A DNA stretch of 64,000 nucleotides, taken from assembly GCA_963792925.1 (NCBI GenBank), contig CAWBYC010000005.1, forward strand, positions 15,353 through 79,352, given 5' to 3'. The notes beneath the pieces were generated by a model. That model did not search any database. It had not been told where the DNA came from and saw nothing but the letters and a program-made list of their open reading frames with translations. The translations under genes were made by a program, and so were the position numbers. Positions within the stretch are counted from its first letter, which is position 1, and each line of letters opens with the position of its first letter. This DNA comes from an uncultured Bacteroidales bacterium (GTDB lineage Bacteria > Bacteroidota > Bacteroidia > Bacteroidales > VadinHA17). Below, piece after piece: positions 11,789 through 63,293 of this stretch.

Positions 11789-12083
11789 TAGTGTTGATCG
11801 CGGATCGGGCTCGTCCGCGCCGCCGGCGGGTTGGTGACGGGCCGCGAACGGTCGTCCTGGGATTTCAAGATTTCGTTCGACGGCGATGCTATCAGACGGT
11901 GCGCAAAAAACGAAGAGACCGGCGAGAGGCCGATCTCTTCGCGATGGCTTTTGAGGGAATCGGCTGAAACCGGTCACTCCGACCGTCTGGTTGGTAGGGC
12001 GGGGCGATGTCGTCTTCGTTAGTAGCGGAATTCGCAAGAATTCCGAAAGGAGTTGGTCTTCATCCCGACTGAGCGAAGTCGTG

Positions 12084-12485: not shown

Positions 12486-13681
12486 GTTCGTCTTCTCTTT
12501 CGTGTTCGGAAGAGCGTTGGGCGAAACGGCGGGCTGGTTCGTTTCGCCATCGGCTGGTGGTGTCTGGAAATCGCCTGACGCATCCATCGAGGTCTACGGT
12601 CCTTTCCCTGGAGACGGCCGAGACAGACTCCCGCACGCAGTCGTGCGATCTGCCAACGAACGACGCCGTCAAGTCAATGACTCAACCTCGTTGTTTCATG
12701 CGATTTCTAATGTGTCGAGTTTGCGGGAACCCTAAACCCTGATTCCCGGCAAGTCTCGGCGGATTCGCCGAAGGTTTTGCCAGGATGATGTGAATTCGGA
12801 TCGACTCGTCAAAATGACGGGTTCCCTTGAAGACTGGCAGCGAACGTTCAAAACGGAGGCCTCCGGCTGGCCCAGAACCAGCGTGTCTCTCTGGAACGAA
12901 CACCACCGGCATTATGGTCTCGGGCGAGACGGTCGTCAACGACATTCGGCCCGATTTTTCATCGGGAATTACCCCAATTCCCAGGTCTCGCGGTCGCAGA
13001 ACCTCCCCGAAGGCAACGTGAAATTCCGCCCCGCAAGGCCTGCCCCACAAGGAGATACGACGAAGGGCACGCTCTTGAAATCGACACACCCCCGATGTCG
13101 CACGAATTATTGCGTCGGATCGGCCAACGTCAATTCGTCACAGACTCGACAACCTCGCGAAACTCATGGCTTGGATTCCCTTCTAACGATTCTGCCGCAA
13201 TACCGTCATCAAGTTGGAATCACCCGCGAATTGGAAGCATGCGAGTGTCGGCGGACTCGGCAGGCGTGCAACGTCGTCGCGCAGCGCCGTGTAGGGGGAA
13301 ATCTTTTCCCTTTCGAAATGCTGCGGGAAATCAGGCGGCCGAACCGCGACCGCTCGGTTCGGCCAGCGAATTGGCATCGTTTTTGCCATTCCATTTCGCC
13401 GCAGACGATTTTCCCGGAAATTCGGATGTCATTCATCCTGACTTGATGTTTCGAAACGAGAATCCCCCCGCCACACGCCGCCAGCATGCCTCAACTCGCG
13501 GCCCTCCCGCTTGAAAACCTTTCGGACCAACGTCACCGAATGGTGCCGCTGTTTCTCCGGCCGACGCAAGCTGACGGATCGTTCGCTGCGTTCCGAATCC
13601 CCCCGCGAACCACGGGTTTTCCTCATCAACCAACCTCCCAAAGCTCTCGCAACCAATTGGAATTCACGAAGGAATGGAATC

Positions 13682-30596: not shown

Positions 30597-33585
30597 ATGA
30601 GATTCCTCGCCCTGGCCGTTGCCGTTCTTTCCCCCCTGTCCGCGATCTCCGCCGCCGACCAGCAACCCGGGAACAAAGCCGGCGTTGCGTTTTTCGAGTC
30701 GAAAATCCGCCCGGCGCTGGTGGCGCATTGTTATCAATGCCACTCGGCCCAGGCAGCCGCGAAGGGGATGTTGAAGGGGAAATTCCTGCTCGACACGCGG
30801 GCCGGAATTCGCAAAGGGGGCGAAAGCGGGCCGGCGGTCGTGCCGGGGAACGTCGGCAAAAGCCGGATCATCGCCGCGCTGAAGCATGAAACCTTCAAGA
30901 TGCCCCCCAAGGGAAAGCTGCCGGCGAACGTGATCGCCGACTTCGAGAAGTGGATCGAATCGGCGCCCCGACCCGCGAGGCGGATCGGCGGTGCATTCCG
31001 AAACGCAAGATCGACATCGAAGCCGGCTAGCAAGTTCTGGTCGTTTCAACCGCTGAATCGGTCGGCGATTCCGCGTGTGAATGACATGAAGTGGGGCCGG
31101 ACGCCGATCGACCGCTTTGTTCGCGCCGCCAGGAAGCCAGCGGCATCGTTCCCAACGCGACCGCCGACCCGCGGACGTTGATTCGCCGGGCGTACTTCGA
31201 CCTGATCGGCCTGCCGCCGACGCCGGAGGAAGTCGAGCGATTCGTCGCCGAGTGCGAGCGGACCCGAGCGGCCTACGAACGGCTGATCGACCGCTTGCTG
31301 GCCAGCGCGCATTACGGCGAACGCTGGGCGCGGCACTGGCTCGACCTGGCCCGTTTCGCCGAGAGCAACGGCTACGCGTTCGACAGGGACCGGCCCAACG
31401 CCTATCACTATCGCGATTTCGTCATCAAGGCGCTCAATGCCGACATGCCTTACGATCAGTTCGTGCGCTTGCAGATCGCCGGCGACCTGCTGACGGACGC
31501 CTGACGACCCGAACAGAGGCCGCGATGACATCGGCCACCGGCTTTCTCGTCGGCGGGCCCGTTCACGTACGCAACAAACGCAGAAGGAACGCGAACGCAG
31601 CCGCTACGAGCAGCTCGACGACATGGTCAGCACGATGGGCACGTCGCATGCTGGGGCTGACGCTCGGCTGCGCCCGCTGCCACGATCACAAGTTCGACCC
31701 GTTGCCGCAGCACGACTATTACCGCCTGGCCGCCGTGTTTGCCGAGGTGGGGTATTCCGAACGTCGGCATCGACCTGAAGCCGGAAATATATCGGCAGGC
31801 GAAAACGAAGTGGGACGCCGCAGCACGCACCGCTCGTCGCCGCGCGGACGAAGTATGAGCAGTCAGCAACTCCCCGGCCGGCTCGACCGCAATGGTTGAA
31901 GCGACCGCCCGACGACTCGCTGCCCGCTCCGACGATCCGCGCCGTGGCAGCACGTCGGCCCGTTCACGGCCGCCAACTTCGACGCGGCCTTCGATCAAGT
32001 CTTTCCGCCCGGAGAAGAAGGTCGATCTCGACAGCGACCTATGAAGACGGCAAACTCAGATGGACGCGGCAACCGAAGTGGAAGGACGGCGAGGCCCACA
32101 ACACGCTGACAGGGCGGACAACTCGGCGAACTATCTGTTCCGCGTCATCGATCGCCGGACGCCGCAGACGCTGTCGCTGTCGCTGGGCAGCGACGACGGC
32201 ATCAAACTGTGGGTCAACGGTCGCGAAGTGCTGTCGAAGAAAGTCGGCCGCAAGTCGCCGCCGCCGGTCAGGAAACGGTCGACATCCAGCTTGCAGCGGG
32301 TCGCAACGAACTGCTGATGAAGATCGTCAACGGCGGCGGAGCGAGCGGGCTTCTACTTCGCGGCCAGTCGACGCCCCGACGCCGGCAGACGTCGCCGGCG
32401 ATCCTGAATCGCCGCCGGACAGCGGAACGACTCAGCAGAAGCAGAAGCTGGTCGACTGGTACAAGGGCTTCGACCTCGACTGGCTGCAGCTGAATCAGAT
32501 CGTCGTCGCGCCACGAGACGCAGCGTCCCAAGCCCGAATCTGACGAAGGTCTTCGCCGCGAAGGTGCGCGGGACGACGTATCAATTCGGCGACGACACGT
32601 ACAAGGTCTATCACCTGCGTCGCGGCAACGCCGACAACAAACAGGACCGGCGACGCCCGGCTTCCTGCAGGTGCTGATGCGGACCGATGACCAGGAACAG
32701 CAGTGGCTTGCCGATCCGACCGGCGCAGAGACAGACCGCGACCGGGCCGGCTCGGATCTGCCGACTGGCTGACCGATGTCGAGATCAGGCGCCGGCCATC
32801 TGCTGGCGCGGGTCATCGTGAACCGGCTGTGGCATCATCACTTCGGCCGGGGCATCGTCGCGACGCCCAGCGACTTCGGCACCCGCGGCGAGCGGCCGTC
32901 GCATCCCGAATTGCTCGACTGGCTGGCCGGCGAACTGATCCGCAACGGCTGGAAGCTGAAGCCGATCCACAAGCTGATCATGACCAGCGCCGTCTACATG
33001 CAGGCCGGCGAAGTCACCGAAAGCGGCGGCGAAGCACGATCCCGAGAACCTGCTGCTCTGGCGGCGCAGTCCGCGGCGGCTGGAAGCGGAGATCATTCGC
33101 GATTCGCTGCTGGCGGTCAGCGGCACGCTGGATCGCACGATGTTCGGCAAGGGCACGCTGGACGAAAGCAGCCGCGCCGCAGCATCTACTTCACGGTCAA
33201 ACGCAGCCAGTTGATTCCGATTGCTGCAACTGTTCGACGCCCCCGACACGATGCAGGGCATCGGCGACCGCGAGGAAAGCACGGTTGCCCCGCAGGCGCT
33301 GGCGCTGCTGAATTCGCCGCTCGTGCGAGACCTGGCGGGCAAGTTCGCGCGCACGCGTGCGGCCCGAACGCGCAGACACTCCGATCGAGCGAGTCGATCG
33401 ACCGGGCCTATCCGGATCGCGCTTGTCGCGAGCCGGCCACGTGCGACGAACGAACGGACATGCGGCGTTTATCGCGAGACAGCAGACGGAATCGCGCGGC
33501 AGCAGACGCCAATGCGAACGGCTGGCCGTTGCGCGATTTCTGCCATCTGCTGCTGTGTATGAACGAATTTGTCTACATCGATTGA
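30597..33585 (+). CDS. PSCyt1/DUF1549/DUF1553 domain protein (planctomycete cytochrome-c-motif protein), frame-disrupted many times
   Basis: The protein has a signal peptide and the heme motif CYQCHS. The DUF1549 part is [23 protein letters not shown]...[22 protein letters not shown]. The DUF1553 part is [18 protein letters not shown] and [33 protein letters not shown]. The tail is [14 protein letters not shown]. Confidence 0.85.
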
Positions 33586-33648
33586 CGCTAACGCAGGCCG
33601 GATCGCTAATCCGACCTCCGCGATACAACGAAATCGGGACGCCATCTC

Positions 33649-35119
33649 ATGCAACATCACCTGATCGATCACCGACGACCGCCGGGAGTTTCTCGAACAC
33701 GCCGGCCTGGGCTGCGGTTCGCTGGCGCTTGACGAGCCTGCTGCATCAGGAGGGCGTCGTTGCCGCGGCAGCCGGCTGCGACTGCCAATCCGCCGGTCGC
33801 TGCAGCGCGCAGTCGCACTTCGCTCCCAAGGCGAAGTCGGTCATCTGGCTGTTCATGACCGGCAGCCCGTCGCAGGTCGACACGTTCGACTACAAGCCCG
33901 AACTGCAGAAACGCGACGGCCAGAACTCGCCGGGGCCGATCCGAAGACCGGCTTCTTCACCACCAGCGGCAAGTGCCTGAAGTCGCCGTTCAAATTCAGC
34001 AGCACGGCGAGTCCGGCGCCTGGGTCTCCGAGATCTTTCCGCACATGTCGCAAGCACGTCGACGACATGGCGTTCGTCTATTCGTGCTACTCGCAGTCGA
34101 ACAACCACACGCCGGCGATGCTGGAATTGAACTCGCGGCATGATCCGCCAGGGCTTCCCGAGCATGGGCTCCTGGCTGACGTATGGCCTGGGCAGCGAGA
34201 ACGCCAACCTGCCGGCTTACGTCGTCATGCACGGCACGAAGCCGCGCGGCGACGATCCGATCTGGTCGTCCGGCTTCCTGCCGACGGTGTATCAGGCCGA
34301 CGGCGCTCGATCGCGCCGGCGAACGAAGCCGATCGACAACCTGGCCCGGCCGACAGGCACTGACCGACGACCAGCAGCGGTCGCTGCTCGACGTGCTCAA
34401 GCAGCTGAACCAGCGAGCACGCCAGCAGCGCGTCCGCTCGAAGCGCGACCTGGCCGCCCGGCATCGAGTCGTTCGAACTGGCCTATCGCATGCAGACCGC
34501 CGCCCCGGAAGCGCTCGACTCGACGCAGGAACCGCAGCACACGCAGGAGCTGTACGGCCTGGACCGCGACGAGTCGACAGACTATCGGCCGGCAATGCCT
34601 GATCGCCCGGCGGCTGGTCGAACGCGGCGTGCGCTTCGTGCAGATCTTCGCCGCGTGCCCGAACACGCCGCGGCGGCGGCGGTGAGCGACGTGCCCTGGG
34701 ACGGCCACAACGACATCGACGGCAATCACCGCGCCTGCGCGGCGACCGTCGATCAGCCGACCGCCGCGCTGCTGGCCGACCTGAAAGCCGCGCGGCATGC
34801 TCGAACGACACGCTCGTGATCTGGGGCGGCGAGTTCGGCCGCACGTCCGACTCGCAAGGGTCGCGCGGGCCGCGACCACAACCCGAACGCCTTCACCACC
34901 TGGATGGCCGGCGGCGGCGTCAAGGGCGGCGTCCAGTACGGAGCCACCGACGAGTTCGGCTACAAGGCCGTCGAGAACCGAGTCAACGTCCACGACATCC
35001 ACGCCACGATCCTGCACCTGATGGGCCTCGACCACACGAAGCTGACCTACCGCTTCAACGGCCGCGACTTCCGCCTGACCGACGTCGCCGGGAATCTCCT
35101 CAAGCCGATTCTCGCATAA
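33649..35119 (+). CDS. DUF1501 domain-containing protein, frame-disrupted
   Basis: ATG lies at 33649. Matching stretches are [59 protein letters not shown] and WDGHNDI. The tail is [24 protein letters not shown]. It is the usual downstream partner of a DUF1549/1553 gene. Confidence 0.85.
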
Positions 35120-35283
35120 ATCCATTGCCCGTCGGCGGAAATCTCCCGGCGACTCGACCGGAATTTCGTCCGGCTCGAATTCGGAGTCGTTCCGATGCCG
35201 GCCGCGGCGCCCCGGTCGTATCATTCCCGAGTAGGAAACTCCTTCTTGGGGAGCGACTCGTTCGGATGCCAGGGAGCATTGCC

Positions 35284-35568
35284 ATGTCCGAAGCCAAAAC
35301 GACCACCGACCATAACGTCATTCGCCGCTGGACCGAAGAGCGGGGCGGCCATCCCGCAACCGTGAAAACCACTGCGAAGCGGGGCCGCCCGGGCATCCTG
35401 CGGATTGACTTCCCCGGCTACAGCGGGGAGGACACGCTGGAACCCATCGAATGGAATGAGTTCCTCGACAAATTCGATGAGGAAAAACTGGCGTTCCTCT
35501 ACCAGGACAAGACCGACGACGGCAAGACGAGCCGGTTCTGTAAGTTCGTGGATGGCACGTCGGCGTAA
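35284..35568 (+). CDS. small conserved hypothetical protein
   Basis: MSEAKTTTDHNVIRRWTEERGGHPATVKTTAKRGRPGILRIDFPGYSGEDTLEPIEWNEFLDKFDEEKLAFLYQD is an intact, protein-like sequence. I cannot name the family with certainty. Confidence 0.5.
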   Translation: MSEAKTTTDHNVIRRWTEERGGHPATVKTTAKRGRPGILRIDFPGYSGEDTLEPIEWNEFLDKFDEEKLAFLYQDKTDDGKTSRFCKFVDGTSA

Positions 35569-35662: not shown

Positions 35663-36240
35663 CATTGACTGTGGAATGCGCGGACCCAAGCAAGTCGCGA
35701 GCCGCCGGGTTTATCCCGGCGGGGATGAACCCCGCCGCTCGCGGGGTTTTGTCCGTGCGCGGCTCCTCGAGTCGACCCGATTCTTGCGAATTCCGCGACC
35801 CCAGCCACGAGAAATGTTAAGATCGGAAGCCCAGGCCGGGGTGGATGTCACCCGTGCGGCCGATTGCCTTTCACTTCCGTTCGAGCGCGGCTGATGTTTC
35901 GTCAGTTTCTGGATGACCTGCAACGCGGGACGGTGAATTTTCTGGGCGTCCTGTGCGTGCTGGCGTTTCTGTTGAATGCCGCGCTATTGGTCTGGCTGTT
36001 GGTGAAGAAGAGCGCCACGGCATGGCGCGCTGTCCCAAATGCGGGCGCACGATCGCCTGTCCGCATTGCCGCGACGATGACGACCAACCGTCGGAACTGA
36101 AGCCAGGGTAAGGAATCGGTTCAAAACAACTCCCCGATTTCGACTTGATGAAGGATGAAGGATATCGATCATCATCCGTCATCCCTCATCTGCACAAATC
36201 GGGAAGGTGATTCGGAAAAAATCCTAAACGCAGGCCGGTC

Positions 36241-36926
36241 TTCATTCGTGCGGTGCGAATTCTTCCGGTGGCGGACCCGCGTCTTTGTCGCGGACGAAGC
36301 TCTTGAACAGTGTGTCGTTCCGCAGCAGTTTTTGCAGTTTGCCCATGCTCGGGTCAACAACACGCGAACCGCGGCGTCGCTCTTTCCAAGCTGCAAGGCG
36401 ATCTCCTTCGACGGCAGCCCTTCGACGTACCTCAGCCGCAGCGCGGTGCGTGCGTCGTCGGGGAGTTCATCGACCGCGGCCAGCATTCGGAATTCCCGTT
36501 GGTCGCGGGAGAACGCCTGGCTGGGGCTGGTCAGGCTGGCGGCGAGCAGGTCGACAAAGCCGCCGCGTTCGTTGCCGCCGACCGGCGTGTCCAACCCGAT
36601 TTCTCTTCCGGCTGCCCGTTTTTTCGCCCCAAAAACCGGCGGTGGGCGTCGATAATCCTTCGCTCCGCGAGATGGCACAACCAACTGAACGGATCTCGTT
36701 CCGACAGGTCCATCTGGTCGAACGAACCGGCCGCACCGATGATCGCCTCCTGCACGATATCCTCCGGTTCCACTTTCCGCTTCAAGGAGTCGCTCAGCTT
36801 CCGTTTGACGAATGCCTGCAGAGGCCGCCGCTTCAGCTCGGCGTATTCCACGAACGCCTCCGCGTCGCCGTGACGAATCTGTTCGAGCAGGTCGGCTTCC
36901 CATTGGGACGGGTCGGCATCGCTCAT
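36241..36926 (-). CDS. ECF-type RNA polymerase sigma-70 family factor, frame-disrupted
   Basis: The region 2 part is MSDADPSQWEADLLEQIRHGDAEAFVEYAELKRRPLQAFVKRKL...EDIVQEAIIGA...FSWLCHLAERRIIDAHRR. The region 4 part is LPDDARTALRLRYVEGLPSKEIALQLGKSDAAVRVLLTRA. Confidence 0.8.
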
Positions 36927-37108
36927 TGGTCGGCTCCGGTCTCCGGAAAATTGTCGGAATGCCGATTGAGAATAGACGCTTCCAGAACGCGGGTCGAGGC
37001 CATCGCGACCGGCGCGATCCGAATCGATTTCCGGCAATTCCCAGGGAGTCGCCTGCTTGCCGTCGCAGGATGTCGTTTCGCGAGTTGCCTTCGGCTCTCC
37101 GCTTTCCC

Positions 37109-37962
37109 TTACGAGTGCCGCAACACCGCGGGCACGGGGGCGGGGCGACGCAGCCGTTTGGTGATGTCGGCCAGCCTGACGAGCTGTTGCACGACCAGCG
37201 GGACGTTCGTCAGGCTGCCGACGAACAGCACGGCGTAGCGAATGACCGCAACGAGGTCGCCGGCGGACATGCCGGCCAGTGTGTCCCATCGCAACATCAG
37301 AACGCCCAGGAACAGGACCAGGCTGAAATCGGTGACGGCGAAGCTGACGGCATGCCAGTCGGAGAGCTTGACCTGCAACTGCCGCAGGCTCCAGAAGTGC
37401 TGCCGGACTTCCTGCGGATCGTTGCGTTCGACCACGTCCACTTCCTGTTCCTGCCGGTCGTGCGTTTCCTGGTTGAGCTGCGAACTCCGTCGGGCCAAGA
37501 GTTTGGAAAACAGTCCGTAGAACAGTAGCAGTCCGCCACAGATCAACCCCCAGATTACGTCGTACCACGCCAGGATCGCCAGCGCCGCCGACCAGCGAAA
37601 ACAGCGTGTAAATAATCACCGGCAAATCCCGCTCGAAAAACGAGACAAGTTGCCGCGACAACGACGACCGCGCCGCCACGCGGGACGTTTCCACATTCTG
37701 GCCCCGGTGAAGCAGGACCATATCCCCCGCCAGGTCGGCGGCGACCGTGCCGAACGTCCGCGTGTCGTACAGATGCCGGGCCGTGGTGATGACCATCTGC
37801 AACAGGCATTGCCCCAGAAACACGAACATCCCCCGCGGGGACGATTCCAGCAGGTCCGCCACCGCCCAGCCCATCGCGAGCGGTTGGGCCAACCGGGATG
37901 ACGTTTTCCAGCACGAACAAGCCGTAGGTCAGCAGGATCGAGCTGCGATACCGGGAGAACAT
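37109..37962 (-). CDS. stand-alone ABC-transporter-type six-TM domain protein (no ATPase domain), frame-disrupted
   Basis: The fragments are MFSRYRSSILLTYGLFVLENV, then LYDTRTFGTVAADLAGDMVLLHRGQNVETSRVAARSSLSRQLVSFFERDLPVIIYTLFSLVG, then LSDWHAVSFAVTDFSLVLFLGVLML...VAVIRYAVLFVGSLTNVP. These resemble an ABC exporter membrane domain. Confidence 0.45.
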
Positions 37963-38411
37963 CCCCCAAGCGTGGCGGCTTCGTGGTCCGCTTCCAGGGA
38001 TTTCCCAAAATTCGAAACATCGTATCCCAATTCGGCGGCGTTCAGAGACAGAGAAACCGTCGATGTCTCGGAACATACGGACGTTGGGGGCAGGCTGTTC
38101 ATGGTTCGGCTTTCGGGAGATCGCGGATTTCAGAAAGGCGAGCGGATTCGAAGAAGACCGCTCACAATTCCCATACCCGCGACGGAACATTCTGTGACGC
38201 AAGGCGAGCGGCGGGATTGATCCCCGCCGTAAGCGTCCCTTCCCGCCGGGGGTGAACCCGGCCGCTCGCACGCTGGCGAAGAAATCTTTCGGCCGCGCTG
38301 TCACGCCGGGAATCCCGGCAGTTATGGGCGGTGTCAGACGCGATGCGACCAGCGAACGCCGGCAGCGGCGACGTCAACCGTTGGGCGTTTCCGGAGCATC
38401 CGTCACCCCTT

Positions 38412-38416
38412 GAGGA
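38412..38416 (+). promoter_or_regulatory. Shine-Dalgarno (GAGGA) of the lasso precursor gene
   Basis: GAGGA lies 8 nt upstream of ATG 38425. Confidence 0.5.
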
Positions 38417-38424
38417 ATTTTGCC

Positions 38425-38595
38425 ATGATCCCGAACAACGTCGTCCCCGTGGTAATCGAAGCCAAAAATGAAACGAAGTCGTCCTACAGCGCTCCCGAAA
38501 TGTTCGTCGTCGGCGAGACGGTTGAACTGATCCAGGGCGCCCAATGGCGCGGCCCGTACGATCATCCCAGTAGCTGGCCGATTTGGCCCCTGTAA
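38425..38595 (+). CDS. lasso peptide precursor (A)
   Basis: The 56-aa peptide is MIPNNVVPVVIEAKNETKSSYSAPEMFVVGETVELIQGAQWRGPYDHPSSWPIWPL. The leader fits the lasso motif YxxPxLx3Gx5Txx at Y-17, P-14, M-12 and G-8, with I-2 instead of T. The predicted core GAQWRGPYDHPSSWPIWPL has Gly1 and Asp9. The gene lies directly upstream of the B and C genes. Confidence 0.65.
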   Translation: MIPNNVVPVVIEAKNETKSSYSAPEMFVVGETVELIQGAQWRGPYDHPSSWPIWPL

Positions 38596-38608
38596 GCCGA
38601 TGACTTCT

Positions 38609-38655
38609 CGCTGCGGTCACTCCCCGAAATCGGAAGTGGCCGCGGCGTTTTTTTT
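38609..38655 (+). terminator. intrinsic terminator/attenuator hairpin after the precursor gene
   Basis: A 13-bp stem (cgctgcggtcact / agtggccgcggcg, two G-U pairs) is followed by T8 at 38648-38655. Confidence 0.6.
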
Positions 38656-38670
38656 GAAAGAGAGTCTCCC

Positions 38671-39547
38671 ATGTCGACGACTGCCCCCATTGCGACCGCA
38701 CTGAAACAGACAATGCCGGCAGCCGGCGCCGAAGCCTCGTGGAACAATACAATGAATCCGTCGCTGCCGTATCGCCTGGCGGTCGATGTGCTGCTGGTTC
38801 CGGTGCCGGACGGCAGCGCGACTCATCGACCTCCACGGGCAGTTCTTCGCGCTGTCGGAATCGGCTGCGCGGATGCTGCAAGACACGCTCGAAATGGGAC
38901 CCGAAGAGGCTGCCGAGGCCGTTGCCCGCCGCTGGAGCATCAGCCGCGAACAGGCCGCCGCGGACCTTGCCTCATTCGTCGGACGGTTGCTCGAACAGGG
39001 ATTGCTGGTGTCGGTCGATCATCAGCAACGTCGGCCCCGGCTTCGGCAACGGCTGGCAGTCATCGTCGTTTTCATTCTGATTCGCCTGACGTGTTGCTTT
39101 CGCCGCTCGCTGAAGGGGAAAATCTCCGGATTGCTGACCGCAGCCCGGTTTTCGTGCCGTTGGCTCGGTTGGGCCAACACGGTCAGCCTGTGGCAACGGC
39201 TGTTTGTGCGCCGAAAACAATGCCTGGTCGGCGGCTCCACGGAAACGGTGCTGAAGGAACTTGACGATGCGGTGCGGCGGGCAGTCGGAGAGTCGGCATT
39301 CGCCCACGCTTGCAAAGAACGCGGCCTGTCCGCCTGGGCTTTGGGCCGCCGCTTGGGATTGGACGTGCGACTTATCATCGGGCTGAGCGTCTGCCCGGTC
39401 CACGGCCACTGCTGGGCCAAATGCGGTGAGATTATCCTCGGCGACGACGAGGACCAGTGCGGACAATACGAACCGATGCAGAGCTATGGCTCGGACCAAT
39501 ACTCTTGCGACATCGAAGCCCGACGCGCAAGCGAGGAGTCCCGTTGA
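38671..39547 (+). CDS. lasso peptide biosynthesis B protein: fused PqqD-like RRE (B1) and transglutaminase-like Cys protease (B2); one frame change near 38815
   Basis: The B1 part is PYRLAVDVLLVPVPDGSA / RLIDLHGQFFALSESAARMLQDTLEMGPEEAAEAVARRWSISREQAAADLASFVGRLLEQGLLV. The B2 part is ACKERGLSAWALGRRLGLDVRLIIGLSVCPVHGHCWAKCGEIILGDD. Its Cys-to-His spacing is 32 and its His-to-Asp spacing is 12. The 3' end runs into a P1 repeat. Confidence 0.7.
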
Positions 39548-39599
39548 ATTCCTTCGCTTGCGCGTCAGGCTTCGATGCAGAACTTTTGGTCCGAGCCAT
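39486..39599. repeat. palindromic REP-like element, family P1, inverted copy
   Basis: It has the same two arms as 23940-24053 in the opposite order. It overlaps the last codons of the lasso B gene. Confidence 0.8.
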
Positions 39600-39638
39600 A
39601 TGCCTGATAACGACAGTGCCATGTCGCCTGCGTTCGCA

Positions 39639-39750
39639 GCGGAATTCGTGAGAATTCCGAAGGAAACTGCTCTTTATCACGTCGGAATTCTTGCGAATTC
39701 CGCTACAGAGCGCTGTCGGAATTCTTACGAATTCCGCTACAGGGCGCTGT
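39639..39750. repeat. EcoRI-site palindromic repeats, family P5 (gcggaattcNtNNgaattccg), three copies incl. a 34-bp tandem duplication
   Basis: The first copy is gcggaattcgtgagaattccga at 39639-39660. The tandem pair is cggaattcttgcgaattccgctacagagcgctgt at 39683-39716 and cggaattcttacgaattccgctacagggcgctgt at 39717-39750. A further copy lies at 12025-12046. Confidence 0.75.
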
Positions 39751-39836
39751 CGTACTACGTCTCGTGGATCGCTTCCCTGGCAACCGGGGATGGAGTATGA
39801 ACGTCGGCGACATGCGGAAGGCAACGGGAGCAACCC

Positions 39837-41717
39837 ATGAACTTCGGTTTCCTCGCACGGTACGACGAACGCGGAGTCTCGTTTCAGCAGGTCGGGGAAC
39901 CGGCTGAAGCGCTACGCCGTTACTGTCGCACGCCGGCGATCAGAACGCCCGCGTCGTCTTTCTGGGCCGGCTGTATTATCGCGACGATCTCCGCCGCCGG
40001 TTTTCAGAACTGCGGCGGCCCGAACCGGCCGAGTCCGCCGCGGCGCACGTTTTGGCGGCCTATCGGCAGGCGGGCGCCGACGGATTGACGTGGATTGAAG
40101 GCGACTACGCCTTCGTGCTCTGGGATGCCCGCGAGCAGCGGATGTTTGCGGTCCGCGATCCTCAGGGGGGATTCCCGCTGTATTGGATACACGACGGTGA
40201 CGCCATTGCCGTCAGCAATGCGATGCGGCCGCTGGTCGACGTGTTACCGCACCGCAGGCTGGACCGCGATTACGTCGCCGAATACCTGATGCTTCCGGGC
40301 ACGGGAGTGCAAGAAGTCAACGACGAACACTGCGCCTATGAGGGAGTCCATCGCGTCCTGGCGGGCACGCGGCTCGAAGTTCGGCCCGGCGGACAGGCCA
40401 AACTGGTGCGTTGGTGGGACTGGCTCGATCAGATTGAAGAACCCGGTAGCCTGCAGCATGAGGCCATCGCCGCGAGGTTCGGTGAACTCTTCGCGGACGC
40501 CGTGCGGCAACGGCAGGTCGGCCGGACGGCGGCCCACCTTTCCGGCGGAATGGACTCGACGGCCGTCGCCCTCTTGCTGGCCCGGAATGCGCGAGAAGCG
40601 GGGGACGAACCCATCCACGGTCTCTCGCTGGTCTACGAACGTTTCAGTTTTCTGGCCCGCGAACGGCCCTTCGTGGAATGCGCGCTCGGAGAATCGGGGT
40701 TGAAATCGCATTTGTTGTCCGGCGACGAGCATCTCGGCTTCGAAGGCTACCGTGACGATGTGAATTCCGACGAGCCGGCACTGGTGCTGTATCAATCGAC
40801 GTCGAATCAGGCGATGCTGCGACACGCCGCCGACCTGGGCGCGCACACGCTCATGACCGGTTTGGGCGCCGACGAACTCATCGGCCAGCCGGCGTTCCAT
40901 CTGCACGAACTGCTCCGCCGGGGCCGCTGGCTGGCCGCCTGGCGGCGAGTCGGCCCGCTGGGCCAAAGAGGCCAACAGCAACCGCTGGAGCTTTCTCGGC
41001 ATGTTCGGGTTGAGGCCGCTGTTCCCTGCCCGATTGCGGGGCGGGCTGCGTTGCTGGTGGCGCGGCGGGCAGGTTCCGTGGGAAGAGCAGTGCGAGTTTA
41101 CGGTCGGTCCCTGGGTCCGTTCGGAATTCGCCCGCCGCTACGGACTGTGGAATCGGGCCGTCGCGCGACTCCGTCGAGTGACCCGCCGTTGCCGGCCTTT
41201 GGCCCGGTCGCTGACATTGGAATTTCTGGACTTAAACGTCGGGGACGCCTTGCGTTGGTCGATGGGCGTTCCGCGCGGCATCTTGACGGTTCATCCTTTT
41301 CGCGACCCGCGGCTGGTACGATTCTGCCTGGGGTTTCAAGGCCGCATCTGGGGGGACCCGACGCGGCAGAAGCCGATTCTGGCCGACGCCATTCCGGGCT
41401 TGCTCCCACCGGCGATCTGCGAGCGCCGTCGCAAAGGCCATTTCAACGAGATTTTCTTTGCCGGCCTTTCGCGGAATCTCCCGGTGCTGGAGGCCTTGGT
41501 TCGCAACTCCGCCGTGGACGATGACCTGTTCGACAAGCAGGAACTGCTGCGTTGTCTGCACAAAGGCGCGCTGGGCATCGCCGAGCATTCGCAAGGCGTG
41601 GACCGTTTGAACCTGACGTTGGGGCTGCTGAAGTGGCTCGCGGTCCAGAAGACGGCCCTGCAGAACGCTGGCCCGCCGTTGCAACCGCTGGATGCGATCC
41701 CATCGGCGACTGCCTGA
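39837..41717 (+). CDS. lasso peptide isopeptide bond-forming cyclase (asparagine synthetase B-like, C), frame-disrupted near 39950 and 40990
   Basis: The start is MNFGFLARYDERG. The N-terminal domain is LAAYRQAGADGLTWIEGDYAFVLWDAREQRMFAVRDPQGGFPLYW. The PP-loop is AAHLSGGMDSTAVALLLA. The C-terminal part lies in ORF 41001..41717 (HPFRDPRLVRFCLG...KPILADAIPGLLPPAICERRRKGHFN). Confidence 0.8.
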
Positions 41718-41939
41718 ACATCGCCATTCTCGCGGCGAATGCGGTTCGCGCTGCCGGTCCATTCCGACGCAATGCCGTCAGGACGCAAGACTTCGCATTC
41801 ACAGCGACCTCAACCGTCTCCGAACCGGCGCCATTGTGTGGGCCGTTGGGCGGCGGCCGATAGATGTTTTTTCCTTGGCGGCCTATGATGCGGTTGTCCG
41901 ATTTCGTCCCTCACGAATGAACTCGATGTCGCCGCCGTC

Positions 41940-43723
41940 ATGGAAACTCCGACTTCGCACTACACCGTTCTTGCCCGTCGCTTCCGCCCGCAGACATTTG
42001 ACGAAGTCATCGGGCAGCAGCACGTCGCGCAGGCGTTGAAGAACGCAATCTCCGGCGGCCGCGTGGCCCATGCCTACCTGTTCACGGGAGCTCGCGGCGT
42101 CGGAAAAACGTCGATGGCCCGCATTTTCGCGAAGGCGTTGAACTGTCCGAACGCCGTCGACGGCATCCCCTGCAACAACTGCGAAGTTTGCAACGGCGTC
42201 TCTGCCGGCAACGACGTGGACGTGATGGAAATCGACGGTGCGTCGAACAACGGGGTGGACAACATTCGCGACATCCGGTCGAACGTGGGCGTGAAGTCGA
42301 TGCGGTCCCGGCACAAAGTCTACATCATCGACGAAATCCACATGCTGTCCAAGCCGGCGTTCAACGCGCTGCTGAAGACGCTGGAAGAACCGCCGCCGAG
42401 CGTGCTGTTCGTATTCTGCACGACGGAGCCGCAGAAGATCCTCGACACAATCCTCTCCCGCTGCCAGCGGTTCGACTTCGCGTCGATTGAAACGCAGAAC
42501 ATCATTCAACGGCTGAAGGAAATCGCGGACGCGGAAGGCTACCAGGTTGAGCCGGACGCGCTGGAACTCGTCGCGCGGCGGGCCGGGGGGTCGATGCGGG
42601 ACAGCCAGTCGCTGTTCGATCAGTTGCTGGCATTCGGCAGCGAAACCATCACGGCGCAGGACGTGCACCGGCTGCTGGGGACGGCCGACGACGAACGGCT
42701 GCTGACTATCGCGCTGGCTCTCACCCGCCGCGACCGGGATGCGGCACTGCGGGAACTGGATGCCGCGTTAGCCGATGGCGTGCAGCTCGGCGAGTTGACC
42801 GACCAGTTGATCCATTTCTTCCGGGACCTGATGATCGTGGCGTCGAACGCGGAGAAGGTCGCGTTGCAGAGCGTCGCGGAAATTCGCCGGCCGGAGCTGG
42901 CCCCGCAGGCGGAATCGTGGGGACTGGCGACAATCGTCGCGGCGTTGCAGATTCTGGTGGAAGCGAAGGTCCGCATGTTCCGGCGCCGTATGCCCGCGCG
43001 ATGGCCGAACTGGCGCTGGTGCGGATCACGCTACTGGAGAACCTGGAAAGCCTGGCGGGGCTGATTCGCGGCCTGACGTCGGGGGATGGATCGCAAGGCC
43101 GAACGCCGCAGCCTTCGCAGACTCCCGCCTCATCACGTTCCGCCCCCGCACGTTCCCCACTCCCCGAACGCCCCGCGACCGGCAACCGCGCCTTGCATGG
43201 GGCGGCGGCTCCGTCAATGGCCAGCAGCCTCCGTGCCGAAGATTCCTCAAAATCACTATCCGCAGTCCAAGTTTCCACCGCGCAAGTGCAGTCCCCACCC
43301 CACATTGCGATCGCGGTGCGGCCCGGCAACGAAGATCGCGTCTTGTCGCAACTCGCTGAAAACACAGATGATGCGTCACGGGCTCACCTGAAATCCGTGT
43401 CAATAGCAATTTCCGGGCCAAATCAGGTGGATTTATTGTTCGCGCCAAGCTATCATTTCTCGAAATCGTACTGTGACCGATCGGAAATCCGCGGCCGCTT
43501 CGAGTCGATCCTCACCGAAGCGGCCGGGAAACCGGTCAAAGTCAACATTCGGATCGACCCCACCGAACCAACCGCGGAAAGCCCAAAACGAGACAACACC
43601 CAACCCGACCCGCCGGCCCGCACGAGAACTGTCGAACTGTCTCAAGCCGACGCCGACCCGTTCGTGCAGCAAGCCGTTTCGATCTTCGGCGGGACGATCA
43701 AGCAAGTCGATCGGATCGGATGA
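41940..43723 (+). CDS. dnaX: DNA polymerase III subunits gamma/tau, one frame change near 42980
   Basis: [57 protein letters not shown] and the Zn module CNNCEVC are present, with SRCQRFDF. The C-terminal half lies in ORF 42917..43723. Confidence 0.9.
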
Positions 43724-43728
43724 CAGAA

Positions 43729-43818
43729 GTCGGGTGGGCTGTGCCCACCATCCTCGACCCAATGAGCGAAGAAAAACCGCGGAACTCAAGTATTGGCGGT
43801 GGGCACAGCCCACCCGAC
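43729..43818. repeat. palindromic REP-like element, family P3, second copy
   Basis: gtcgggtgggctgtgcccacc ... ggtgggcacagcccacccgac lies between dnaX and ybaB. Confidence 0.75.
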
Positions 43819-43847
43819 ACGGCTGAAATGAAAGGAACCCGACGCTG

Positions 43848-44211
43848 ATGTTCAAGAAAATCGGAAACATCTTCTCGCTGATGAAGCAGGCCCAGGAAAT
43901 GCAGGGCCGCATGAGTGAGATGCAGGAGAAGTTGAAGCACGTCCGCGTCGAAGGAACGGCCGGCGGAGGCATGGTGACCGTCGAAGCCAACGGACAGCAG
44001 AAGGTCTTGAACGTGCGGATCGAAGATTCGCTGTTGAAAGACGGCGACAAGGAAATGCTTGAAGACCTGCTCGTGGGAGCCGTCAATTCGGCGCCTCGAC
44101 AAAGCCCGCGAAGCAGCCGCCGAGGAGATGGCCAAAATCACCGGCGACCTGAACCTGCCGGGGCTTGATGAAGCGATGGGAAAAGTGCGTTCGGACGGAG
44201 AGCAAGGATGA
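43848..44211 (+). CDS. ybaB: YbaB/EbfC family nucleoid-associated protein, frame change near 44090
   Basis: MFKKIGNIFSLMKQAQEMQGRMSEMQEKLKHVRVEGTAGGGMVTVEANGQQKVLNVRIEDSLL..DKEMLEDLLVGAVNSA is followed in the next frame by [24 protein letters not shown]. Confidence 0.85.
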
Positions 44212-44764
44212 AGTGCGACGACGTTCGGTCGCCTTGCAGAATTACTCGTACCACCAGAGATTCCGGTTCACAGTGAGGGTGATTGGGATCCCGGTAGAAA
44301 GTGCTTTGGGGCTCAGGCTACCACTGGACTATAAGTGCTATATCGAAGTCTTCGGTCAAGGCACGATTCGCGGCCGCGAGAATCGTGCCGGTCTCTATAT
44401 TGCCAGCTATCTGGCACCGAACCCTGCATTGCACGCGAGAGGATTTGCACAGTATTTCCAATCGATCGAGCCAATTCAATATGACGTTTACCCAACGACT
44501 CCGGGAGTACTCGGCTTCGGCTCATATGCAGATGAGGATTCACTCGCTTGGTACACAGTAGGGAAACCTGACAACTGGCCAATCATCTATCACGATGTTG
44601 AAACAGGGTTTCATGAAATTCGGGAAATGTCTCTGGTTCAATTGATTCTTTCGATTCTCGAAGGTTGTAGTCCCCTACAGGATGAAATCATTCGAAAGGA
44701 TGAACTGCTGAAGCCACACAAGTTTCATTCGAAAAACCTGAACATCGAATCGGTATTGATTTGA
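44165..44764 (+). CDS. SMI1/KNR4 (SUKH)-like protein, start uncertain
   Basis: [23 protein letters not shown]...[52 protein letters not shown] has the SUKH-1 pattern. The gene is visibly more AT-rich than its neighbours. Confidence 0.55.
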
Positions 44765-44765
44765 A

Positions 44766-45394
44766 ATGTCTAGGAATGGTGAGTTCTCTCAACCGCACCC
44801 CTACGGGCCGTCGGTCGCGAATCTGATCGATCAGTTCGCCCGGCTGCCCGGCATCGGCCGAAGACGGCCGAGCGGTTGACGTACCACATTCTGGCCGCCC
44901 CGGAAGACGGAAGCCGCCAATCTGGCCGGACGCTTTGCGGACGGTGAAGACCGCGGTGCGTCCCTGCCGGCAGTGCTTCAACCTGACCGAAGGCGAAATG
45001 TGCGACATCTGTTCGGACGCCCGCCGGCAGACCGACGTGGTCTGCGTAGTCGAGCAGCCGCGGGACGTCACCGCACTGGAAGCGTCCGGCGTCTTCCAGG
45101 GGCTGTACCACGTGCTGCAGGGGAAGCTCTCCCCGCTGGACGGCATCGGACCGGAGAAACTGACCATCGACGCCCTCGTCAGGCGGGTCAACCGGGACGG
45201 CGTCACGGAACTCATCATGGCCACCAACCCGACACTGGAAGGCGACGGCACCGCCCTGTTCATCTCCAACATCCTCGCGAAGACTGCCGGTACGGATCAC
45301 CCGCCTGGCCCGCGGCATCGCCACCGGCAGCGTGCTGGAATTCGCCAACAAGGAAATGCTGGCGGACGCACTCCGCGGCCGGCAGGAGTTTTGA
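44766..45394 (+). CDS. recR: recombination protein RecR, frame-disrupted
   Basis: The start is [12 protein letters not shown]. The C4 finger is [18 protein letters not shown]. The Toprim part is [39 protein letters not shown]...[19 protein letters not shown]. The tail is [16 protein letters not shown]. Confidence 0.85.
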
Positions 45395-45557
45395 GAGTGA
45401 GCGATGATGGAAGTGAGCGGAATCGCCATGACAACGGACAATCGACGAGCGGAGTTCAATGATGCTGAGCAACGAGGCAGACCCCGATCACTCAATGCCG
45501 ACGACCCATGCCGGGCTCGTGCGCATCTCAGAGACGGATCACTGAGACGACCGAACG

Positions 45558-47041
<1,484 letters not shown>

Positions 47042-47577: not shown

Positions 47578-47881
47578 GGTCGGACCCAAAGTTGTGAATC
47601 GAAGCCTGACGCGGAAGCTTTAAAGTTGCGCCCTTCCGTCCCGAAGGGACGCCACGAAAATAGCCGAGCGATTCATCGCTCGATCGAGTACGGGAAAGCC
47701 GCGCAGTCCCGAAGGGATGACTGAACGCTTCAGCCGTCCCTTCGGGACTGTGGTTCCCGGGCGCGTCAAACCCGGCGATGAATCGCCGGGCTTCTGTCGA
47801 ACCGTCCCTCCGGGACGAAGAATTGCGCAACTTCAAAACTTGCGGGTCAGGCTTCGATATCGCAAAAGAAATGGTCCGAGC
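47578..47881. repeat. composite palindromic element: P1-like outer arms enclosing gtcccgaagggac-type sub-hairpins
   Basis: The outer arms are ggtcggacccaaagttgtgaatcgaagcctgacgcg and cgcgggtcaggcttcgatatcgcaaaagaaatggtccgagc. Inside are four copies of gtcccgaaggga / tcccttcgggac-type units and a ccggcgatgaatcgccgg hairpin. Confidence 0.7.
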
Positions 47882-60614: not shown

Positions 60615-61132
60615 GAAAGATAGTTTCAGGTGTGGTTGTTATCGTTATTCTTTTATTTTCATCTTATTTAGGGGCCGGCATAATCAGGAAGGTGCATAAT
60701 CATAAGATTATAATAGAGAAAATAGCAAAGTTACCCTCATTTGCTTTTTTAACATTGTCAAATAGTAATTTCAATTCATCAGAAATAACAAAAGGTCCTG
60801 TTCTGGTTCTGTATTTTCACCCTGAATGTGAGCATTGCCAGTGGGAGATGTCTGAGATCTTTAAAAGTCAAATACCAGAGTCATTCCAAAAGGTTCTATT
60901 AATCTCTTCCGCGCAACCTGATTCAATAGTAAAATTCCTTCAACAATTCCATTATACTGACTATCCATCAGTTCTACCGCTTGTAGATTCTTCTTACAAC
61001 TTTGAACTATATTTTGGCAGTAGTCTTGTTCCTTCATCTTATGTATATGATAGTAAACTGAATCTAATAAAACATATTCGGGGTGAAGTAAAAACGGAGG
61101 CTATCCTTAATCTGATAACAAAGAATGAATGA
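60611..61132 (+). CDS. TlpA-like thioredoxin-fold thiol-disulfide oxidoreductase, membrane-anchored
   Basis: It has an N-terminal TM helix, and the redox motif in VLVLYFHPECEHCQWE is CxxC. It overlaps both neighbouring genes. Confidence 0.65.
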   Translation: MRKIVSGVVVIVILLFSSYLGAGIIRKVHNHKIIIEKIAKLPSFAFLTLSNSNFNSSEITKGPVLVLYFHPECEHCQWEMSEIFKSQIPESFQKVLLISSAQPDSIVKFLQQFHYTDYPSVLPLVDSSYNFELYFGSSLVPSSYVYDSKLNLIKHIRGEVKTEAILNLITKNE

Positions 61133-63293
61133 CAGGAATAAAATCAGGAAGTATTCTGTGCTGCAGCACGATATGTCAGATTGCGGCGCAGCTTGCCTGG
61201 TTTCTGTAATCAGGTATTTTGGCGGAAATTCATCGATTGAAAAAATCCGTAAGCTGAGCGGAACCAGTCAGTCCGGGACCACTATGCTCGGACTTTACGA
61301 GGCTGCTCAACAATGTGGACTGGATGCTGTCGGATATGAAGCCTCCATTAAGGATATTATTGAGTATAATAACGTGCTTATTCTGCACATCTCGCTGGAA
61401 GAGAGGCTTGAACATTATATAATTTGCTTTGGTTATGAAGGAGAAAAATTTTTAATATGGGACCCGGCTAAAGGATTTATTTACATGTCAGTTGCTGATC
61501 TGGGGAAGATCTGGTTGAGCAAGAAATGTCTGGGATTGAATCCTAATGATAAGTTTCAGATTGAAAGTGATATAATTAAAAATAAGAGAATATGGGTATT
61601 GAATGCTATTAGACCCGAAAAGGACCTTTTAATAATAAGTGTAATTACAGGTATTCTTATTTCTGTATTAGGTCTGGTAATGGCTATTTATACACAAAAA
61701 CTTATTGATAAAATATTGCCATCAGGTCAGACAAAGATTCTAATGATTTCGGCCATTTTAGTTCTTTTGCTCCTGTCTACCCGAATCATACTGTCTTCAG
61801 TACGCCAATATTTTCTGCTTTTGCAAGGTAAATCATTCAACATCCGGATTGTTGATGATTTTTATAAAGCATTGCTATTCCTTCCAAAGGCATTTTTTGA
61901 TACACGCAAGACAGGTGATTTTGTCGCCAGATTGAACGATACACTGAGGGTCCAGAGGGTTATTGCAGAAATTGTCGGAGTGTATATTATTGATATTCTC
62001 ATTCTAATCATTTCATTGGTAATGGTTTTCTATTATTCCAACATAGCCGGAATACTGTCTGTTGTCGCCATCCCGACATTTTATCTGATCGTTTACCGGT
62101 GGGATAAAAGAATAATATCAGCCCAGCGTGATGTAATGGCAGGTTATGCTTTAAGCGATAGTAATTTTATTAATTCCCTCAGAGGGATAAATGAAATAAA
62201 AAGCTTGAACTGGCACCATAATTTTGAAATAAAGAATAATTATATCTATTCAGAATTTCAGGACAGAATTTTCCATTTAGGTAAAATAAAAGTAAAACTT
62301 AATCTGTTAACCGGCCTGGCAGGTTCATGTTATCTTATTCTTATACTTGTTTTTACAGCCTCTCAGGTCATAAGTAAGAAGATGACTCAGGGAGAACTGA
62401 TGGCAATTCTGTCTTTATGTTCGACTCTGCTGCCATCGGTTCTTAATCTGGCGTTGATAGGCATTCCTCTCAATGAGGCAAAGGTTGCTTTAGACAGAAT
62501 GTTTGAGTTTTCATATATTGATCCTGAAGAAGTAAATAAAGATGCAGGAGCGGACAACTTTGAGATAAAAAAGATTAATCTACAAAAAATATCGTTCAGG
62601 TTTCCCGGACAAAAACTTTTGCTGGATAATATTTCTATAATTATTGAAAAAGGGAAAGTTATATCATTGGTAGGGGAGAGCGGTTGCGGCAAAAGTACTC
62701 TGGCAAACATTATCTTAAGATTTTATTCACCCGAAGAGGGTAATATAATTGTGAACAGCGAAATCGAATCTGTTAATGTGGAACTGAAAAATTGGAGAAC
62801 AAAAATTGGAATTATTCCACAGGAAATTCATATATTTAATGGTACAATTCTGCAAAACTTATTAACGGAACTGACTGAAAACAAAATTAGTGAGATGATC
62901 ACGACGATTTCAGATTTTGGGTTAAGAAGTTTCATTGAGAGTTTTCCTTCCGGGTTAATGACTTTGGTTGGAGAGGAAGGAATTAATCTTTCCGGTGGTC
63001 AAAAACAATTGATTGCTTTCATAAGGGTTCTTCTTAATAAACCAGACATACTGGTTATTGACGAAGGAACCTCGAACATGGATCGTGGGACTGAGAGTTT
63101 GATAATGAACCTTGTTACAAAACTGAAATCACAAATGGGGATTATATTGATCTCACACCGTATCAATATGATTAAAAAATTAAGTGACTATATATATGTG
63201 ATTGAGGGAAAAAGTATCACATCCAGGGGCACTCATGAGGACCTTATTAAGACGGATAATTTATATAAAAGATTTTGGGATGATTTTTATTAA
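61125..63293 (+). CDS. peptidase C39 domain-containing ABC transporter (bacteriocin cleavage/export)
   Basis: The C39 part has Cys in QHDMSDCGAACLVSVI, His in HYIICFG and Asp in WDPAKG. Six TM helices follow. Walker A is GESGCGKST, the signature is LSGGQKQ and Walker B is ILVIDE. Confidence 0.9.
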   Translation: MNDRNKIRKYSVLQHDMSDCGAACLVSVIRYFGGNSSIEKIRKLSGTSQSGTTMLGLYEAAQQCGLDAVGYEASIKDIIEYNNVLILHISLEERLEHYIICFGYEGEKFLIWDPAKGFIYMSVADLGKIWLSKKCLGLNPNDKFQIESDIIKNKRIWVLNAIRPEKDLLIISVITGILISVLGLVMAIYTQKLIDKILPSGQTKILMISAILVLLLLSTRIILSSVRQYFLLLQGKSFNIRIVDDFYKALLFLPKAFFDTRKTGDFVARLNDTLRVQRVIAEIVGVYIIDILILIISLVMVFYYSNIAGILSVVAIPTFYLIVYRWDKRIISAQRDVMAGYALSDSNFINSLRGINEIKSLNWHHNFEIKNNYIYSEFQDRIFHLGKIKVKLNLLTGLAGSCYLILILVFTASQVISKKMTQGELMAILSLCSTLLPSVLNLALIGIPLNEAKVALDRMFEFSYIDPEEVNKDAGADNFEIKKINLQKISFRFPGQKLLLDNISIIIEKGKVISLVGESGCGKSTLANIILRFYSPEEGNIIVNSEIESVNVELKNWRTKIGIIPQEIHIFNGTILQNLLTELTENKISEMITTISDFGLRSFIESFPSGLMTLVGEEGINLSGGQKQLIAFIRVLLNKPDILVIDEGTSNMDRGTESLIMNLVTKLKSQMGIILISHRINMIKKLSDYIYVIEGKSITSRGTHEDLIKTDNLYKRFWDDFY

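Follow-up and report, generated by a model that had tools for sequence, protein, structure and literature searches.

A lasso peptide gene cluster in planctomycete DNA

A 64,000-nucleotide stretch (hereafter the window) of contig CAWBYC010000005.1, assembly GCA_963792925.1, deposited as an uncultured Bacteroidales bacterium, holds at 36172-41717 what we read as a canonical lasso peptide locus of a Planctomycetaceae bacterium, most likely intact, with frameshifts that stem from indel errors in a poorly polished assembly; we place the probability of this reading at about 0.8. A sequence-only reading of the same DNA had pointed to three consecutive and co-oriented genes at 38425-41717, and all three were found there on the plus strand: gene A for the precursor peptide, gene B for a leader-recognition domain fused to a protease, and gene C for an asparagine-synthetase-like cyclase. 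The diagnosis of a lasso cluster follows from their combination, because a RiPP precursor recognition element (RRE), a Cys-His-Asp protease and an AsnB-like enzyme lie beside a short peptide which carries a variant of the lasso leader motif and a core of the type Gly1...Asp8/9.

The cluster extends beyond these three genes to about 36172-41717, and the conserved unit is likewise larger than A-B-C, comprising also a membrane protein of the ABC_membrane_3 family and, usually, a sigma factor of the extracytoplasmic function (ECF) type. Both of these genes had escaped the sequence-only reading, as had an insertion near the stop codon of B that resembles a miniature inverted-repeat transposable element (MITE) and the replacement of Thr by Ile at position -2 of the leader.

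The precursor peptide and its family

Gene A (38425-38595, plus strand) is an open reading frame (ORF) of 56 amino acids, the precursor length given by the sequence-only reading, preceded by a GAGGA ribosome-binding site and encoding the protein MIPNNVVPVVIEAKNETKSSYSAPEMFVVGETVELIQGAQWRGPYDHPSSWPIWPL. The leader (38425-38535, 37 aa) ends in ...VELIQ, and the predicted core (38536-38592) is the 19-mer GAQWRGPYDHPSSWPIWPL, having Gly at position 1 and Asp at position 9. When A was aligned with 11 precursors from related loci, residues Y21, A23, P24, G30, Q37 and G38 were invariant and L35 and D46 nearly invariant; in terms of the core, Gly1 is found in all 12 sequences and an Asp occupies position 8 or 9 in nearly all of them, the exception being the precursor of locus L008 (L008_A), which has Glu. 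Residues Y21, P24, M26 and G30 of the A leader are spaced exactly as in the canonical lasso motif YxxPxLx3Gx5Tx. Within this alignment, the Leu of the motif is replaced by Met or Ile, and the Thr at position -2 by a fixed Ile or Leu in 12 out of 12 precursors, Ile being the residue found in the window. Ile at this position has been experimentally validated in the bsf cluster of Bradymonas, where it was termed rare (PMC10368454).

A profile search retrieved 34 database relatives of A, all of them unnamed and sharing the ELIQ/G boundary. Taking the window core as the reference, the closest cores were those of the metagenomic sequence P0166 (GAQWRGPLDHPSSWPIWPL, 18/19 identical), of P0173 (GAQWRGPLDHSSSWPIWAL, 16/19 identical) and of L007_A from locus L007 (GAQWRGPLDHPNSWPVWSL, 15/19 identical). 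Since the B proteins of L007 and the window share only 57-59% identity, conservation is stronger in the core than in the enzyme, which speaks for a functional peptide. A literature search for the core sequence returned no match.

The related loci carry from one to five small genes adjoining B and C, and a leader-motif pattern search detected no precursor on the 11-kb Gemmataceae contig of locus L006. Locus L001 (8867-10243) has, after B and C, five precursor genes in tandem whose cores differ, and the ABC_membrane_3 gene is absent. Locus L008 holds, at 10173-12747 and directly after a first cluster of A, B, C and the membrane protein, a second and divergent lasso set made of a 64-aa precursor (...NLLQ/GSGRHKIDD...), a 326-aa B and a 630-aa C.

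The fused leader-recognition and protease protein

Gene B (38671-39547, plus strand) encodes a PqqD-like RRE fused to a transglutaminase-like Cys protease. Its N-terminus (...PYRLAVDVLLVPVPDGSA) shares the frame of the ATG at 38671, whereas the remainder is read in a second frame, that of the ORF at 38786-39547; the last 19 codons of the gene derive from an inserted repeat. The ORF at 38786-39547 matches the Pfam families PqqD (2e-7) and Transglut_core3 (1e-9); upon frame correction the 292-aa protein displays contiguous, full-length domains, with PqqD at 1.4e-7, above its cut-off, and Transglut_core3 at 38.5 bits against a cut-off of 26. The fusion of a PqqD-like domain with a Cys protease, as earlier proposed, was thus recovered in a single polypeptide, and the hidden Markov model searches suggested at the time (PqqD, Transglut_core3 and Asn_synthase) gave matches for all three families in B or C. 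Among lasso-specific models, the best NCBIfam matches of B were lasso_PqqD_Strm (3.5e-7) and lasso_biosyn_B2; lasso models are the best NCBIfam matches of both B and C, although at scores below the curated cut-offs.

Numbering residues from the ATG at 38671 with the frameshift corrected, the catalytic triad of B is formed by Cys215, His247 and Asp259, which are invariant across 19 homologues. The sequence-only reading had equated the spacing within this triad, 32 and 12 residues, with that of McjB, and it proved right: in the protein encoded by mcjB of the E. coli plasmid NZ_CP147061.1, from which the residue numbers were derived, the triad is C150/H182/D194. Moreover, H182 and D194 of McjB align with the His and the Asp of B.

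Homologues of B (n = 22) are 47-59% identical to it and about 258 aa long. When a profile of the 19-member B family was compared with solved proteins, only TfuB1 (6JX3, 5e-5) and TbiB1 (5V1U, 1e-3) were significant. The AlphaFold2 model of B has a predicted local distance difference test (pLDDT) score of 81.6, and its top Foldseek matches were 5V1V, 5V1U and 6JX3, having target TM-scores of 0.81-0.86 and root-mean-square deviations of 1.5-1.7 A; these matches concern the RRE domain only, as Foldseek returned no convincing solved-structure match for the protease half of the model.

The cyclase

Gene C (39837-41717, plus strand) encodes a lasso cyclase related to asparagine synthetase, about 626 aa long once corrected, and has a GGGAG ribosome-binding site 8 nt upstream. 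It is spread over three frames, one starting at 39837 (MNFGFLARYDE...), a second at 40052 with GATase_7, the first half of Asn_synthase and the SGGMDS motif, and a third at 41001 that covers positions 199-353 of the 354 in the Asn_synthase profile. Correction of the frames yields a protein with GATase_7 and with Asn_synthase at positions 3-353 of 354 (5.6e-23), so the identification of C as an asparagine-synthetase homologue with an SGGMDS PP-loop holds over its full length. Identity reaches 69% with C of L007 and 58-59% with C of L009 and L001. C lacks the Cys2 nucleophile of glutamine-hydrolysing AsnB, because its N-terminus reads MNFGF.

The best NCBIfam matches of C were macrolact_Ik_Al (1.5e-48) and lass_lactam_cya (7e-48), with asn_synth_AEB at 6e-31, and its solved relatives are the distant amidotransferases 7YLZ and 1CT9. 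The PP-loop SGGMDS aligns with SGGLDS of McjC; apart from this loop, a pairwise BLAST of C against McjC was insignificant, so the comparison with McjC is by itself no test of membership.

These results bear on the idea that the product of A, B and C is not a threaded lasso, being instead a branched-cyclic macrolactam or the outcome of some other chemistry carried out by the asparagine-synthetase homologue. The scores of the cyclase fall short of the curated lasso cut-offs, the NCBIfam model that it matches best is that of the albusnodin/ikarugamycin macrolactam-cyclase subfamily, its similarity to McjC is confined to the PP-loop, and threading is not visible in a sequence. On the other hand, the joint presence of the RRE, the Cys-His-Asp protease, the AsnB-like enzyme, the leader motif and the Gly1...Asp8/9 core is diagnostic, and the bulky Trp14 and Trp17 of the tail are typical steric plugs. 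We consider a non-lasso product highly improbable and keep the assignment of a lasso cluster.

Origin of the frameshifts

The frame changes, which according to the sequence-only reading had to be sequence errors if the cluster was to work, were mapped by frameshift-aware protein-to-DNA alignment against the closest intact homologues. B contains one frameshift (~38815, one extra nucleotide) and is 57% identical to the aligned homologue; C contains two (~39906, one missing nucleotide; ~40946, one extra nucleotide); neither gene has any in-frame stop. For the housekeeping genes dnaX, ybaB, recR and rpoN, located directly downstream (41937-47038), the reference was L010, a Joint Genome Institute (JGI) metagenome contig from a close relative with the same gene order. 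The alignments revealed 1 frameshift in dnaX (1481 nt aligned), 1 in ybaB (352 nt), 4 in recR (620 nt) and 11 in rpoN (1481 nt), adding up to 17 frameshifts in 3.9 kb. The density in B and C is therefore 1.1 per kb (3 in 2.6 kb) versus 4.3 per kb in the four housekeeping genes. The indels in the latter each add or remove one base, within short G/C contexts; rpoN also has one stop-like codon at 46776, yet corrected RpoN is 89% identical to the L010 protein. The ECF sigma factor gene, the membrane-protein gene and the PSCyt2, PSD1 and DUF1501 genes (31-35 kb) are split as well.

Because breaks are denser in the housekeeping neighbours than in B and C, the frameshifts characterise the assembly rather than the lasso genes, and those in B and C are almost certainly part of an assembly-wide indel artefact, as judged from the alignments, which answers the earlier caveat in favour of sequencing error. 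About 44 kb of the window are poorly polished assembly, and apparent pseudogenes in that part should be distrusted.

Should B, C and the membrane-protein gene nevertheless carry real frameshifts, the cluster would be a decaying pseudogene remnant from which no peptide is made. Such decay could be read from the three frameshifts in B and C, the two in the membrane-protein gene and the mobile-element insertion at the end of B; furthermore, L010 has no lasso cluster upstream of dnaX, so the locus is dispensable. Against it stand the denser breaks of the adjoining housekeeping genes and the 89% identity of corrected rpoN, the lack of nonsense codons in B, C and the membrane-protein gene together with the retention of all catalytic residues, and a core that is identical at 18 of 19 positions to its metagenomic orthologue. 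Taken together these data make decay very unlikely, and we maintain that the genes are most likely intact and the frameshifts erroneous.

A programmed dnaX frameshift was considered for the break at ~42987 and rejected, since this position falls within domain III and every neighbouring gene is broken too. L010 was also of no help in delimiting the island, its synteny with the window comprising only dnaX-ybaB-recR-rpoN and no other L010 gene having a homologue in the window.

Repeats and hairpins within the cluster

A different kind of alteration is found at the end of B. A 116-bp MITE-like palindrome flanked by TA/TA (39485-39600) is located 4 nt before the original stop codon of B (TGA, 39605-39607). 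A 100% identical copy is present at 24054-23939, and degenerate half-copies near 47580-47618 and 47839-47881. Removal of the element plus one TA restores a protein end '...EPMQSYA*', where homologues end in '...TYA/TYE*'; because its excision brings back a homologue-like C-terminus, we regard the element as a MITE-like insertion. As a consequence B gains a foreign tail of 19 aa, whose residues 272-286 have a pLDDT below 50 in the AlphaFold2 model and are predicted to be disordered. In contrast to the frameshifts, the insertion is real, and any doubt about full function in this strain comes mainly from it.

The spacer between B and C is 290 nt long, compared with 16-66 nt in seven related loci, and contains three 34-nt palindromic units of the form GGAATTC-n4-GAATTCC (39638-39748). 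Each unit includes two EcoRI sites, a further copy exists at 12007-12047, and none is expected by chance; the unit may be a repetitive extragenic palindromic (REP)-like intergenic repeat of this genome. The region 39470-39840 has a fold energy of -195.5 kcal/mol (z = -13.7).

With the genes themselves intact, these repeats might have crippled or re-tuned the cluster of this strain, so that little or no mature peptide is made here while the family is functional elsewhere. The MITE-like element with its TA duplication 4 nt before the stop of B, the added tail with its low pLDDT, and the very stable 290-nt spacer, uncoupling C from B where all seven related loci keep them within 16-66 nt, are all in line with it. 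The tail, however, begins past the last conserved residue (Tyr273), is predicted disordered and need not disturb the fold, and B may tolerate it; C has its own ribosome-binding site; and REP-like intergenic hairpins commonly stabilise operon mRNAs rather than abolish them. A crippled cluster is thus unlikely in our view, and a working one remains the preferred interpretation.

A terminator-like hairpin consisting of a 12-bp GC-rich stem followed by U8 is present between A and B (38610-38655, plus strand; -33 kcal/mol, z = -2.8). It is likely an attenuator, controlling how much A transcript is made relative to B/C transcript. Hairpins after A are also seen in related loci, although these lack the U-tract. 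A terminator consensus scan missed this hairpin, a sigma-70 promoter scan returned nothing, and Rfam gave only a chance hairpin match.

Membrane protein and sigma factor genes upstream of A

Divergently from A, on the minus strand, lies a gene for a membrane protein of about 300 aa (37109-38076) belonging to ABC_membrane_3 (PF13748) and having no ATPase domain; its start codon is at 38076 or 37962. PF13748 profile positions 27-130 and 146-237 are matched in two different frames, and the gene bears 2 (possibly 3) frameshifts, at ~37583 and ~37887-37909, the placement of the latter varying with the homologue used. By frameshift-aware alignment, the protein is 32-40% identical to its homologues in L009, L006, L005 and L008, with no stops. 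In L004, L005, L006, L008 and L009 the ABC_membrane_3 gene sits 3' of C. Searches of the protein yielded no ABC_tran domain, no similarity to McjD, no NCBIfam name and no relative in the Protein Data Bank (PDB). As no relationship to McjD, to PDB entries or to NCBIfam families was detected, its role is proposed solely on its PF13748 domain and its conserved gene position. The sequence-only reading had stated that the cluster lacks a dedicated full ABC exporter, an isopeptidase and tailoring genes. This holds for 35.2-41.9 kb, where no McjD-type full half-transporter (membrane domain plus ATPase) was found in the cluster; the statement had passed over the ATPase-less ABC membrane-domain protein encoded just upstream.

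The gene for the ECF-type sigma factor (36172-36926, start Met at 36926) is likewise on the minus strand, where it follows the membrane-protein gene. It has at least one frameshift: the Pfam domains Sigma70_r2 and Sigma70_ECF share a frame that differs from that of Sigma70_r4_2. The clusters of L005, L008 and L009 are flanked by an ECF sigma factor as well. Farther upstream (31117-35300) we found the PSCyt2/PSD1 (DUF1549/DUF1553) pair, typical of planctomycetes, together with DUF1501.

Predicted maturation pathway

By homology to microcin J25 and fusilassin, and with the pathway described in PMC4979651 and PMC11420955 as the template, the following order of events can be proposed. The 56-aa precursor would be made in excess, with help from the hairpin and U8 that separate A from B. 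Through Y21-x-x-P24-x-M26-x3-G30, the leader would then be bound by the N-terminal RRE domain of B, and the protease of B (Cys215/His247/Asp259) would cleave after Gln37, with Ile at position -2 instead of the usual Thr. C would adenylate the side chain of Asp9 and join it to the amine of Gly1, closing a ring of 9 residues; the Trp/Pro-rich tail of 10 residues (HPSSWPIWPL) would be threaded through it, with Trp14 and Trp17 as candidate plugs. On the basis of conserved gene position only, the ATPase-less ABC_membrane_3 protein is a candidate export or immunity component and the ECF sigma factor a candidate regulator. The predicted mature product has a computed monoisotopic mass of 2231.070 Da ([M+2H]2+ 1116.542).

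Evidence weighing against the assignment

Several observations pull against an intact lasso locus. Regarding the enzymes, B scores 30.4 bits with lasso_biosyn_B2, short of the cut-off of 33 (the intact L001 homologue reaches 39.8), and C also falls below the curated NCBIfam cut-offs, at about 165 versus 300 and 525 for the cyclase models. Regarding the locus, no accurate-read or near-identical sequence was found that would show at single-base level that the three frameshifts in B and C are errors, the closest B among 5.8 billion proteins being only 59% identical; no ATPase partner of the membrane protein is encoded nearby, and the flanking sigma factors differ in subfamily between loci, hence their association is loose. 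Moreover, the altered C-terminus of B and the stable 290-nt spacer could result in reduced or absent C expression or B activity in this strain, and no lasso product has been observed.

Comparison with known lasso systems

The cluster resembles mcjABCD of microcin J25 in having a single fused RRE-protease B with a Cys-His-Asp spacing of 32 and 12, an AsnB-like C with an SGG(L/M)DS loop, a precursor of similar length (58 aa in McjA, 56 aa here) whose core begins with Gly1 and includes an acidic ring-closing residue, and a presumed order of cleavage, adenylation and cyclisation (PMC4979651, PMC11420955). In contrast, sequence similarity is marginal, amounting to E = 1e-5 over 41 residues for B and to the PP-loop alone for C. 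The ring of microcin J25 is closed between Gly1 and Glu8, whereas here Gly1-Asp9 is predicted, and its leader has Thr and not Ile at -2. Microcin J25 also possesses a full ABC exporter of the McjD type, while here only the ATPase-less ABC_membrane_3 protein, without detectable similarity to McjD, is encoded; and C (626 aa) is longer than McjC (513 aa), keeping a long N-terminal GATase-like domain.

With TfuB1/FusE of fusilassin and TbiB1 of thermobifida (6JX3, 5V1U, 5V1V) the resemblance lies in the N-terminal ~90 residues of B, which match them at E = 5e-5 and 1e-3, in the predicted fold of the RRE domain and in the spacing of the YxxPxLx3G leader motif. The actinobacterial B1 (RRE) and B2 (protease) are separate proteins, whereas B is fused here, as in proteobacterial clusters. 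The bsf cluster of Bradymonas sediminis (PMC10368454) shares the Ile in place of Thr at the penultimate leader position but has split B1/B2 and a precursor kinase producing a phosphorylated lasso, while the family described here has a fused B and no kinase.

Lasso clusters predicted by antiSMASH have already been reported in planctomycete genomes (bioRxiv 10.1101/723874; PMC5383146), and triculamin-like lasso cyclases have been noted in Planctomycetota (PMC12070363). These predictions share with ours the phylum, the class of product and the fact that no product was characterised; they consist of counts or a cyclase phylogeny only. The triculamin-like clusters are non-canonical and have no B protein, in contrast to the canonical cluster of the window. 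The claim of novelty for the phylum must then be narrowed: a literature search found no characterised lasso product from Planctomycetota, in agreement with the sequence-only reading, but lasso clusters as such had been predicted there before.

We have here a canonical lasso cluster with modest variations, namely the fused B, Ile(-2) and the ATPase-less membrane partner. It is useful for natural-product discovery and would not surprise a specialist, its novelty at the level of the phylum being limited to the uncharacterised product. A more ambitious interpretation, which we offer tentatively and consider somewhat doubtful, is that of a distinct planctomycete lasso clade in which the fused B co-evolved with an Ile/Leu(-2) leader, an ATPase-less ABC_membrane_3 protein takes the place of a McjD-type transporter in export or self-protection and a dedicated ECF factor exerts control. 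The Trp/Pro-rich 19-mer, with up to 18 of 19 core positions shared across metagenomes, would then offer a new bioactive scaffold and be the phylum's first lasso peptide. If expressed, the cluster would give Planctomycetota, from which very few natural products are known, their first characterised lasso peptide, and it would make a test case for a fused B handling an Ile(-2) leader, for an ATPase-less ABC membrane domain in export or immunity and for ECF control. For such work the intact orthologous clusters L005, L009 and L004 and the cores P0166, P0173 and L007_A can be synthesised in place of the error-ridden window sequence.

Taxonomic origin, distribution and composition of the window

RpoN from the block which contains the cluster groups with Planctomycetaceae (Caulifigura, Thalassoglobus and Gimesia). 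Among species-representative genomes, the B family occurs in two metagenome-assembled genomes (MAGs) of Planctomycetaceae and in one of Gemmataceae; intact loci with A, B, C and the membrane protein were found in MAGs of both families as well as in JGI metagenomes. The B profile retrieved 233 clusters at 50% identity (E <= 1e-30), nearly all of 240-270 aa, and the fused-B subfamily is common in environmental data.

The window is composed of three blocks, with boundaries at ~5500-6600 and ~50000. The first ~5.5 kb have about 75% GC, the Planctomycetaceae block (6-50 kb) about 62%, and the last block (50-64 kb) 35-50%, the latter being Bacteroidota-like and including PKD and CHU_C type IX secretion domains. 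ORFs are long and intact in the 50-64 kb block and riddled with frameshifts in the planctomycete block. These differences suggest a chimeric contig or a composite window. The low-GC block also encodes, at 61125-63293, an ABC transporter of 722 aa, intact and with a C39 peptidase domain at its N-terminus, of the type that exports bacteriocins or double-glycine peptides; it has no relation to the planctomycete cluster and may mark another peptide locus.

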